Below, piece by piece: positions 283 to 2,169 of a stretch of 64,000 nucleotides of DNA (its first letter is position 1; the number at the start of each line of letters is the position of its first letter). The stretch comes from an uncultured Bacilli bacterium. Its GTDB lineage: Bacteria; Bacillota_I; Bacilli_A; RF39; UBA660. The translations under genes and the position numbers were made by a program. Below the pieces are notes generated by a model. The model saw only the letters and a list, made by a program, of their open reading frames with translations, was not told the DNA's origin and searched no databases. Location: NCBI GenBank assembly GCA_934101645.1, contig CAKORX010000003.1, positions 69,179 to 133,178 of the forward strand, in the 5' to 3' direction.

Positions 283-909
283 ATGGATAGTGAATTACAA
301 TTATTAGAAAAAGATATAAAAAAATCTTTAAAAGAACAGCATCCAGAATTAGTTTTAGATAGACTGCATACATTAAGCGTTAAAATAATAAGAAGATTTT
401 GTGAAGAAAATAATATAGCTGTTTTTAATGAAAAAAATGAGTTGTATCCATTGCATAGTTTGGTTGGAATGCTTGTAAAAAAGTATAATCAAAGAGGAAT
501 TCTTAATAACTTTAGTGAAACAGCATTAAAACAGTCAATTTCAATATTTGAAAAATTTAATGATATAAGAAATAATAGTAGTTTTGCACACGATAATGAA
601 ATTTTAACGAAAGAAGATGCTATATATGTTATAAATACTATTGTTAATTTGTTAAATTATATTGTTTATATTGAAACTGGAAAATCACAATATGTAAATA
701 TTAATGTTGCAGATGCCAATGATATTTATAAATATATATGTATTAATGACATTGTTACTACGAGAGAAATATCAGAAAATTTTAATATTTCAATAGATGA
801 AGCAAAGGAAATTTTAATTGAACTTTTTAAAGTAAATAGAGCAATAAGACCTGCTCATTTAGCATGTAATCCCGAAGATGAAAATTGTCAGTGGTCGAAG
901 TATTATTAA
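283..909 (+). CDS. HEPN-domain protein, Abi_C/AbiJ-C-like (Rx6H motif IRNNSSFAH), with a C-terminal winged-helix-like segment. Candidate abortive-infection/toxin RNase.
   Basis: A 208-aa ORF with a good RBS (AAGGAGGG, 8 nt upstream of the ATG). The motif R-N-N-S-S-F-A-H fits the HEPN Rx4-6H signature, followed by a helical region. The C-terminus (DIVTTREISENFNISIDEAKEILIELFK) looks like an HTH/wHTH. Family assignment is by motif only. Confidence 0.5.
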   Translation: MDSELQLLEKDIKKSLKEQHPELVLDRLHTLSVKIIRRFCEENNIAVFNEKNELYPLHSLVGMLVKKYNQRGILNNFSETALKQSISIFEKFNDIRNNSSFAHDNEILTKEDAIYVINTIVNLLNYIVYIETGKSQYVNINVADANDIYKYICINDIVTTREISENFNISIDEAKEILIELFKVNRAIRPAHLACNPEDENCQWSKYY

Positions 910-918
910 GGAGGGCAT

Positions 919-2169
919 ATGGTAGAAGATATTGTAAGTGTTGAAGAAGAATTATATAGTATTTGTGAAGAAATGGAAAAACTATATAAAACTAACGTGG
1001 AAAGCAAAGTAGATGATGTTGATGATGAAAAGGTTACATACATAGGTAGAAGAATTAATAAAATAAAGAAGATTATTAATAATTGTGAATTATCGTTCGA
1101 ATTATCCAGTGACAAAGAAAAAATTAAAAATAATATTAATGCAATTATAAATGCAGAAACTACCATCGGGCAGGTTGTTATTGATGATCCAAACAATACC
1201 CAAGAAATTAGGAATCGTCTTGACTCAATAATCGGTAGTATAAAAGAAGTTGAAATTATTCTTAATTCTTTTATTGATATATCCACTTATTTAAGTCGAG
1301 ATGGTATAAAGAATGGTGTTCAGTCTTATAAAAGAGGCTTAAGCAGAGTTAATTCATCTATTGCTGAATTAGAACAAAAAACAGTAGCTAATTTTCAAAC
1401 ATTACAAGAAGAAGAAAAAAATAAAATTCAACAACTTGGAGATAAACAAGAAGAATTTAAAACTGATATTGATAATCAATTAAATGATTTTACAGAAAAA
1501 ATAAATGAATTAGAAAAAACAATTGAAGATAAAAATGCTGAAATAGAAAATACGAAGGAAAATTATAATAAAATAATTAATGAACTACAAGAATCATATT
1601 CAAATAAGATATCAGAGTTTGAAAACAGCGCTAAACAAGATTTTGATAATATTAAAGTTGAAATTGAAAAGAAAGATGAAAAAATATCTGAGTTAATAGG
1701 ATTAATAGGAAATAAAGCAAATATAGGCGAGTACAAGTCTAATGCTGACAAAGCACACTTTGAAAGAATTAAATGGCAAATAGCTACAGTGATTATTTTT
1801 ATTGTAGCCTTTGCATTAATGGGATTAATCACTCTTTTTACAAAAGATTATAACATTGCAACATTAGCTAGATATATAGTAAGTGTTATATTGTTAGGTA
1901 TGTCTGGTTATACAGGAAAACAAGCAAGTAATTTAAGAAAAGACGAAGTATACTATAGAAAACAACAACTTGAATTATCTTCTATAGATGTTTATTTAGA
2001 TGATATTCCACAAGAAACAAAAATTTTGATAAAGAAAGAATTATCAAATAAAATTTTTGGCCAAGCGGGAGAAACATACAAGAGTAAGTACGATGACAAT
2101 ACAAATGAAACCTTAGATAAAGTTGTTAAATTAGTAGAAAATTTATCCCACACAATCACTAAAAAATAA
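919..2169 (+). CDS. Coiled-coil protein with a C-proximal two-TM hairpin (SLATT-like topology) and a ~100-aa cytoplasmic tail. Predicted partner/effector of the upstream HEPN protein.
   Basis: A 416-aa ORF. Its RBS AGGAGGG overlaps the stop codon of the upstream gene, indicating translational coupling. There is a long heptad-like K/E-rich region. Two hydrophobic helices (WQIATVIIFIVAFALMGLITLF and IVSVILLGMSGYTG) are separated by a short loop. Confidence 0.55.
   Translation: MVEDIVSVEEELYSICEEMEKLYKTNVESKVDDVDDEKVTYIGRRINKIKKIINNCELSFELSSDKEKIKNNINAIINAETTIGQVVIDDPNNTQEIRNRLDSIIGSIKEVEIILNSFIDISTYLSRDGIKNGVQSYKRGLSRVNSSIAELEQKTVANFQTLQEEEKNKIQQLGDKQEEFKTDIDNQLNDFTEKINELEKTIEDKNAEIENTKENYNKIINELQESYSNKISEFENSAKQDFDNIKVEIEKKDEKISELIGLIGNKANIGEYKSNADKAHFERIKWQIATVIIFIVAFALMGLITLFTKDYNIATLARYIVSVILLGMSGYTGKQASNLRKDEVYYRKQQLELSSIDVYLDDIPQETKILIKKELSNKIFGQAGETYKSKYDDNTNETLDKVVKLVENLSHTITKK

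Follow-up and report, generated by a model that had tools for sequence, protein, structure and literature searches.

A HEPN RNase-type gene and a membrane coiled-coil gene in one operon of a decayed island from an uncultured Bacilli bacterium: two-gene system or stacked cargo?

Introduction

A stretch of 64,000 nucleotides (nt) of contig CAKORX010000003.1 from an uncultured Bacilli bacterium (positions 69,179 to 133,178; here called the window, and the source of all coordinates unless another locus is named) carries near its left end two adjacent open reading frames (ORFs). ORF1 encodes a HEPN RNase-type protein and ORF2 a coiled-coil protein with two closely spaced transmembrane (TM) helices, and the locus raises the question of whether the two form one conflict system, as a preliminary description of the sequence had proposed, or have merely come to lie side by side. 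Both ORFs were present as that description had read them (Table 1). Our analysis favors, with a probability of about 0.62, that ORF1 and ORF2 are defense-type cargo genes, independent of each other and separately mobile, which in this lineage only have been stacked as one bicistronic operon within the cargo slot of an immobile island. The window's own locus is referred to as WIN and related loci by L-numbers.

Results and discussion

One transcription unit

The ORF1 stop codon (907–909) is separated by 9 nt from the ORF2 ATG at position 919 (...TAT TAT TAA GGAGGGCAT ATG), and the Shine-Dalgarno sequence of ORF2 overlaps this stop, the latter as previously described. The gene pair is enclosed by a single promoter-like site with a conserved leader and a single terminator, and a scan of the junction for promoter-like and terminator-like sites found neither. 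Since the promoter lies 5′ of ORF1 and the terminator 3′ of ORF2, with neither at the junction, the two genes are read as a single transcription unit.

Homologs of ORF1 and ORF2 occur without each other

The proposed two-gene module was to be given up if homologs of the two proteins did not occur together, and this was the pattern encountered. The ORF2 family was sampled at 32 loci, representing about 19 distinct contexts. A tblastn search of ORF1 over these loci found a homolog only in WIN, L041 and L042, which have ORF2 sequences of 97–100% identity and belong to one lineage. An ORF2 relative with 81% identity (L038) has the leader described below directly upstream and no ORF1, and the same arrangement was found in L001, L016 and L003 (57, 55 and 49% identity, respectively). 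In L001/L002 (57%), a VWA-like gene lies upstream and an integrase fragment downstream, with the ORF2 relative under its own promoter and leader; the VWA-like gene of L001 was considered as a partner and rejected, as this promoter and leader intervene. L003 (49%) has no gene upstream of the ORF2 relative, and downstream encodes a YjcQ protein, an intact integrase and then satellite-like replication genes. The relatives in L017–20 (51%) are preceded by a tRNA 3′ end and followed by an HsdR gene; a 208-amino acid (aa) gene downstream in L017, considered as a rearranged pair, proved to be the HsdR N-terminus. More distant relatives (34–47%; L004/5, L047/48 and L050) lie within transfer regions of integrative and conjugative elements (ICEs). 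Further family members were found with various neighbors in genome bins of uncultured Bacilli (L033–L037), in metagenomes (L043–L053) and on a Parageobacillus plasmid.

The same holds for ORF1, as none of five other lineages encoding ORF1-type proteins (L007, L011, L012, L040 and L055–62; relatives of 66–51% identity) contains ORF2. The ORF1 homolog is followed after 17 nt by a gene for a 486-aa PDC-M36A-like protein in L007 and after 3 nt by a gene for a 254-aa protein in L012. Tight downstream linkage is absent in three lineages: a 369-aa protein is encoded 193 nt after the homolog in L040, a 1,065-aa Schlafen-like protein 357 nt after it in L055–62 (with a Fic gene upstream), and nothing was found for ~600 nt after it in L011. 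Since homologs of either gene are found in loci lacking the other, ORF1 and ORF2 are read as independent.

Within the one lineage that has both genes, L041 (924–2613) encodes an ORF1 without aa 112–143 and an ORF2 without aa ~187–218 (32 residues each); its ORF2 is furthermore frameshifted, and its integrase is intact. The deletions suggest decay of the cargo, or possibly an artifact of metagenome assembly.

As a separate observation, the 486-aa protein of L007 (5645–7105) carries the precomputed Pfam annotations DUF8370/DUF8371 and matches the PADLOC candidate family PDC-M36A at 4.3e-14. Inspection by eye revealed a possible PD-(D/E)xK-like D...EFK pattern at its C-terminus.

A leader and a cargo slot shared by both gene types

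The segment at 211–280 of the window, spanning the −10 box, leader and Shine-Dalgarno sequence, is conserved 5′ of ORF2-type genes that lack ORF1 (L001 5926–6000, L003 381–450, L016, L038 3340–3412 and L043 ~200–282) and likewise 5′ of ORF1-type genes (L007 4927–5000, L012 4934–5000, L040 240–315 and L055 ~3920–3996). In the window the leader folds with a free energy (dG) of −11.3 (z −2.05), and across the loci it consists of an A/U hairpin of 9–11 bp, a U-run and then a CU tract. Pairing is kept in four stem variants, in which both strands of the stem have changed (AAUUCUAUA/UAUAGAAUU, AAAUCUAUU/AAUAGAUUU, AAUCUACAC/GUGUAGAUU and UUCUAUAC/GUAUAGAA); these were read by eye and from single-sequence folds, the MAFFT alignment having placed the stems out of register for a covariation count. 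No Rfam family matched the leader, which could serve as an attenuator or DNA operator, stabilize the 5′ end of the mRNA or gate translation.

The similarity extends beyond the leader. The outer flank (window 40–150, with the terminator hairpin, GTGCCCA...GGGTTTG.G and the GGGAACAA direct repeat) recurs in L003, L007 and L012, where sequence related to the left repeat of the island is found 5′ of the cargo genes, and the region of the terminator following ORF2 recurs after the 486-aa gene of L007. Furthermore, the gene order recG-DUF975 is continued by an ORF2 relative in L033 and by an ORF1 homolog plus the 486-aa gene in L007. With one leader and flank found in front of ORF1-type genes in some genomes and of ORF2-type genes in others, the position is best described as a variable cargo slot. 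ORF1 and ORF2 thus occupy the cargo position between att site and integrase of a small integrative element, a position whose contents differ between genomes.

The distribution of leader and neighbors also bears on a reading in which ORF1 is a modular front-end (sensor, regulator or antitoxin-like) with interchangeable downstream effectors, namely ORF2, the PDC-M36A-like 486-aa protein or the 254-aa protein. An unrelated gene in the same orientation is indeed found within 3–17 nt in three of six ORF1 lineages, but the other three lack a tightly linked downstream gene and ORF2 relatives exist without ORF1. The 486-aa partner matches a candidate defense family (PDC-M36A, 4e-14), and the C-terminal winged helix-turn-helix (wHTH) of ORF1 could provide autoregulation; however, the leader is also present where ORF1 is missing, and is therefore not an ORF1-specific operator, and the invariant HEPN catalytic residues argue for an effector role of ORF1 itself, of the kind demonstrated for SadR (see below). 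We regard the front-end role as very unlikely.

ORF1 is a HEPN protein with a variant domain order

The assignment of ORF1 to the HEPN/Abi_C proteins with an R-x6-H motif was well supported. ORF1 matched Pfam Abi_C (PF14355) over aa 59–127 with an E-value of 4.4e-8 and 33.5 bits (curated cut-off 24), a family carried by all 120 ORF1 homologs among the matches listed, and R96, N97 and H103 (RNNSSFAH) were invariant across 24 homologs together with an LDRLHT motif. Searches of ORF1 against PADLOC and NCBIfam gave no match. The AlphaFold model (predicted local distance difference test, pLDDT, 87) contains a helical bundle at aa 1–132, which has the HEPN fold, and an H-E-H-H-E-E unit at aa 145–206 that agrees with the C-terminal wHTH suggested earlier.

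With HEPN first and the wHTH at the C-terminus, ORF1 departs from the usual architecture of an AbiJ-NTD followed by a C-terminal HEPN domain, which is a variant domain order and not a failure of Abi_C membership. In the database search this 208-aa form made up only ~25 clusters, compared to hundreds of ~275-aa Abi_C proteins that have HEPN at the C-terminus after an N-terminal extension. The IMG/VR viral contigs yielded no ORF2 relatives, and the ORF1 relatives there were HEPN-only. A relation of the wHTH to the YjcQ protein encoded after the ORF2 relative in L003 was rejected (hhalign probability 0.5%). No nucleotidyltransferase domain, as in HEPN-MNT toxin-antitoxin systems, was found in ORF2 or the neighbors.

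Among described proteins, ORF1 was compared to AbiJ from Lactococcus (pND859) and SadR from Staphylococcus aureus. SadR, reported in 2026, is an Abi_C protein of 266 aa (motif RNEYGDAH) and a Mg-dependent nuclease for single-stranded RNA, which protects against both phages and plasmids as a single gene, with R/N/H mutants losing nuclease and defense activities (PMC13590631). In a 2013 survey of HEPN proteins, AbiJ was defined as a HEPN family fused to the N-terminal domains NTD1–5, with ‘solos’ in operons for restriction-modification (R-M) (PMC3710099). ORF1 has in common with these proteins the Abi_C match above cut-off, the HEPN fold, the contexts of defense and mobile genetic elements (MGEs) and the ability to stand alone, and its RN-x5-H motif has a spacing identical to that of SadR. 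In contrast, AbiJ and SadR are ~265–280 aa long, with an N-terminal domain (AbiJ-NTD1–5 or unrecognized) and a C-terminal HEPN domain, while ORF1 combines an N-terminal HEPN domain with a winged helix of ~70 aa. A further parallel, compared by description only, is Tha, a tail-activated single-gene HEPN RNase defense of S. aureus prophages that is encoded next to the element's integrase (PMC11087260). Like Tha, ORF1 would be a single-gene HEPN RNase encoded beside the integrase of a mobile element; Tha is controlled by an overlapping antisense gene. Because of the homology to SadR and AbiJ and the invariant catalytic residues, ORF1 is most likely a stand-alone, trigger-dependent RNase of the AbiJ/SadR type.

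ORF2 belongs to a large family with a conserved two-TM domain

The coiled coil and the two close TM helices reported for ORF2 were recovered by hydrophobicity analysis and in the AlphaFold2 (AF2) hairpin. TM1 (aa 287–306) is strongly hydrophobic (KD19 2.8) and TM2 (aa ~313–331) weaker (below 1.6). As both flanks of the TM pair are rich in K/R and the loop between the helices has only 5–8 residues, an N-in/C-in topology is predicted, which suggests that both ends of the protein lie in the cytoplasm. The AF2 model (pLDDT 76, predicted template modeling score 0.35) has a confident four-helix bundle at aa 8–124 and a single helix at 127–307 running into TM1, after which the chain reverses as helix 311–356 to give a hairpin at 287–356; the tail is of low confidence.

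Conservation in ORF2 is high over the last ~170 residues, comprising the juxtamembrane helix, TM pair and tail (42 positions invariant in 32 homologs), and the N-terminal two-thirds are variable. A profile of this C-terminal domain retrieved 1,971 clusters (50% identity) with an E-value cut-off of 1e-3 and 534 with a cut-off of 1e-10, mostly of 400–450 aa with the domain at the C-terminus. The names looked up for members of this superfamily were ‘hypothetical’ throughout, except for one COG-style ‘Zn-ribbon’ label. Compared to Pfam, NCBIfam and PADLOC, ORF2 had no significant family once coiled-coil noise was discounted, this noise including matches to ZorA, JetC, SMC, apolipoprotein, hemagglutinin and similar proteins. 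A relation to LeoBC (Eleos, dynamin-like) was likewise dismissed: the PADLOC match of full-length ORF2 (3.2e-6) was lost with the two-TM domain and tail alone and was therefore attributed to the coiled coil, and no GTPase domain was found.

The preliminary description had seen a SLATT-like topology in ORF2. This stands, as ORF2 has a two-TM hairpin followed by a cytoplasmic helical region; the profile matches all stayed below the curated cut-offs. Full-length ORF2 matched SLATT_4 and SLATT_5 with E-values of 0.068 and 0.17, and SLATT_1 was matched by 6/32 family and 6/97 superfamily members (best 4.2e-4). When the C-terminal domain was scanned alone, with the coiled coil removed, RTasSLATT was found in 8/15 members (best 1.3e-4) and the 2TM effector of cyclic oligonucleotide-based antiphage signaling systems (CBASS) in 5/15 (best 1.1e-3), again sub-threshold. 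The SLATT models were the sole topologically sensible recurrent matches of the family, with which they share the TM hairpin, the defense-island context and a single register for the weak matches (SLATT_1/4/5, RTasSLATT and CBASS 2TM effector). Unlike the known SLATT proteins (CBASS 2TM effectors and reverse transcriptase-associated SLATT in defense-associated reverse transcriptase/unknown group, DRT/UG, systems), ORF2 begins with ~280 aa of four-helix bundle and coiled coil that fall outside the SLATT models, and no SMODS/SLOG gene or reverse transcriptase lies beside it in the window or among the scanned neighbors. More generally, no SMODS/SLOG/CD-NTase or reverse-transcriptase partner of the family was found among the precomputed Pfam annotations of neighbors or the neighbors scanned, which represent a subset of those at the loci. 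Going by these sub-threshold profile matches, the ORF2 family would be SLATT-like at most.

A tblastn search of a phage collection with ORF2 gave no match. A distant superfamily member is nevertheless encoded by the temperate Microcystis phage vB_MaeS-yong1 (L063 4467–5714; MT855965.1 23050–24297), as a 415-aa protein annotated ‘apolipoprotein A-I’ and flanked by a CI-like DNA-binding gene and a Pin-like recombinase. The spot between a CI-like gene and a recombinase is a usual site of exclusion genes expressed during lysogeny. The top BFVD fold match, A0A7G8Z7W7 (likewise 415 aa, E 1e-7), may be the same protein.

Genomic context of the ORF2 family

The surroundings of ORF2-family genes are typical of defense islands and mobile elements, in line with the defense-type context proposed earlier. 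Neighbors of ORF2 relatives include type I R-M (L017), a type III methylase (L003), a C5-methylase, NOV_C and GmrSD (L043), and an AAA_15/21 ATPase, a DEAD helicase and NERD (L001). A Fic gene is found both in the context of L033 and in the window at 5138, and two HEPN genes occur just downstream of ORF2 relatives, namely TPR-HEPN_LA2681 in L034 and Abi_2/AbiD in L035.

In the ICE-borne relatives, the gene sits between the MobL relaxase and the coupling protein. This position, together with the relatives that adjoin an integrase or recombinase in islands, on a plasmid and in a temperate phage, is what would be expected if ORF2 were a housekeeping part of mobile elements (entry or surface exclusion, conjugation or membrane scaffold, element maintenance) that lies beside ORF1 merely as cargo. 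However, many copies are found in chromosomal defense islands without nearby transfer genes (L033–L036 and L043), and exclusion is itself a conflict function, so that this explanation overlaps with that of two independent defense-type genes; as an alternative to it we consider the housekeeping role quite unlikely.

Weighing one system against two genes

Several points weigh against the independence of ORF1 and ORF2 or against their proposed roles. The two genes are tightly coupled as described above, and near-identical copies of both are found in many samples. Many of the sampled contigs are short, and some partner absences could be checked on one side only. ORF1 relatives are tightly coupled to two other unrelated downstream genes as well (gaps of 17 and 3 nt), and ORF1 could be working with variable partners. 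The two further HEPN families downstream of ORF2 relatives make a functional link weakly possible. Finally, the immune function suggested for the ORF2 family is drawn from context and sequence, and its SLATT signal reaches no curated threshold.

In a true two-component system, the HEPN RNase and the two-TM coiled-coil protein would cooperate, one sensing or restraining the other, or the membrane protein being a second effector triggered by the RNase, as an instance of a looser HEPN-plus-membrane theme. The bicistronic arrangement with overlapping stop codon and Shine-Dalgarno sequence fits such a system, but co-occurrence is confined to one lineage and the 81%-identical ORF2 relative in L038 lacks ORF1. 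It can further be argued that three HEPN families adjoin ORF2-family genes (Abi_C in WIN, HEPN_LA2681 in L034 and Abi_2/AbiD in L035); however, the latter two are found on the opposite side of ORF2, 110–390 nt away, and belong to unrelated families, as chance in defense islands gives. With 3/~34 immediate neighbors being HEPN proteins, there is no clear excess over a defense-island background of 3–5%, itself a rough estimate that we assumed. The 32-aa deletions in both genes and the ORF2 frameshift of L041 suggest decay, possibly an assembly error, and also speak against a functional pair. A ‘HEPN-TM’ system encoded by phage-inducible chromosomal islands (PICIs) is mentioned in a review (PMC12948488), which favors a genuine pair and means that the earlier statement that no system of HEPN and membrane partner had been described was not quite right. 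Compared by description only, it resembles our locus in having HEPN and membrane-protein genes in one operon on a small integrative island, and differs in that the pairing of ORF1 and ORF2 is not kept among relatives. The PICI system was reportedly described by Fillol-Salom et al. in 2022. On balance, cooperation of ORF1 and ORF2 as one system seems unlikely to us.

A bolder view would see in the ORF2 family (about 2,000 unannotated clusters at 50% identity) a new class of membrane-anchored cell-death or exclusion effectors, with an N-terminal bundle related in fold and role to the four-helix-bundle death domains of plant nucleotide-binding leucine-rich repeat receptors (NLR CC and NRG1 CC-R), MLKL and HeLo, and recurrently teamed with HEPN RNases (Abi_C, AbiD and LA2681-like) such that RNA degradation is coupled to membrane damage. 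We see little chance of this being correct.

Proposed functions of the two proteins

If ORF1 and ORF2 are independent cargo, each would protect the cell in its own way. Dimerization of ORF1 probably forms the R-x6-H active site, and the protein would be quiet until a cue from a phage or MGE is sensed, upon which it would degrade single-stranded RNA and arrest the cell. The C-terminal winged helix may replace the usual N-terminal AbiJ sensor and is likely to be the sensing, nucleic-acid-binding or self-regulating part.

ORF2 is predicted to be membrane-embedded, with cytoplasmic N- and C-termini, and to oligomerize via its long coiled coil. Its sequence features make the membrane the most likely site of action, with the two-TM module and tail as the acting part and a variable cytoplasmic head and stalk. 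The conserved SLATT-like module and tail could either permeabilize the membrane upon a trigger (abortive infection) or block the entry of foreign DNA (exclusion), and the variable N-terminal bundle and stalk may confer specificity. Co-transcription would then provide two protective layers for the host instead of a single machine.

The island and neighboring genes

The repeat-bounded island next to a dead integrase, as pictured in the preliminary description, was recovered in the form of two 68-nt repeats and an integrase broken into three reading frames (Table 1). With its integrase decayed, the island is apparently immobile now. Its composition is not distinct from that of the window (GC 0.247 and 0.254, respectively).

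Three small ORFs of the island (3617–4770, + strand; 78, 138 and 136 aa) had no significant family, the 138-aa ORF giving a weak match to DUF5677 (E 0.013), and may be remnants of regulatory or replication genes of the element. Just beyond the right repeat, a Fic-domain protein with an N-terminal HTH is encoded at 5138–6139 (+ strand), with matches to the PADLOC models PDC-S04 (1.4e-37) and SoFic (3.5e-34) for candidate or known defense systems. L033 likewise has a Fic gene close to its cargo slot, and in L055–62 one immediately precedes the ORF1 homolog. The interval from the Fic gene to a metK-like gene (7429–8451) holds a gene for a predicted 230-aa membrane protein (6194–6886, + strand) with a weak NCBIfam match to ExIF, a putative type VI secretion system effector family (E 1e-4, far below cut-off).

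Table 1 Features of the ORF1-ORF2 locus and the surrounding island in the window.
Feature	Position (nt)	Strand	Remarks
Left 68-nt direct repeat (att-like)	32–99	+	93% identical to 4910–4977; holds the terminator hairpin of the upstream gene (47–68) and GTGCCCA..GGGGTTTGCG
Promoter-like site AAGACA-17-TATAAT	197–225	+	10/12 matches; TATAAT kept in all related leaders
Conserved 5′ leader	226–282	+	11-bp A/U hairpin at 235–260, then U-run; CU tract able to pair with the Shine-Dalgarno sequence
ORF1	283–909	+	208 aa; HEPN of Abi_C/AbiJ class aa 1–132; R-x6-H aa 96–103 (nt 568–591); C-terminal wHTH aa ~140–208 (nt 700–906)
Shine-Dalgarno sequence AAGGAGGG for ORF2	908–915	+	Sequence inspection; overlaps ORF1 stop codon
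ORF2	919–2169	+	416 aa; four-helix bundle aa 8–124 (nt 940–1290); coiled-coil stalk aa 127–286
ORF2 C-terminal part			TM1 aa 287–306 (nt 1777–1836); short outside loop; TM2 aa 313–331 (nt 1855–1911); conserved cytoplasmic tail aa 332–416
Terminator hairpin	2168–2191		Between convergent ORF2 and integrase remnant; similar sequence after L007 cargo gene
Tyrosine integrase pseudogene	2182–3181	-	Three reading frames (tblastn with the intact 373-aa L042 integrase); PF00589 on C-terminal fragment
Right 68-nt direct repeat (att-like)	4910–4977	+	End of the 4.9-kb island

Implications

The proposed two-gene system most likely reflects stacking by chance, and the locus thereby cautions against over-reading operon adjacency in defense islands. 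What is new here is, for ORF1, a rare HEPN-first, wHTH-last form of the known AbiJ/SadR RNase family. ORF2, in turn, represents a large undescribed family of coiled-coil two-TM proteins found beside recombinases on islands, ICEs and a temperate phage, and is a reasonable candidate for a stand-alone defense or exclusion gene acting at the membrane. The conserved promoter-leader slot in related gut Bacilli could furthermore be mined for more defense-type genes.

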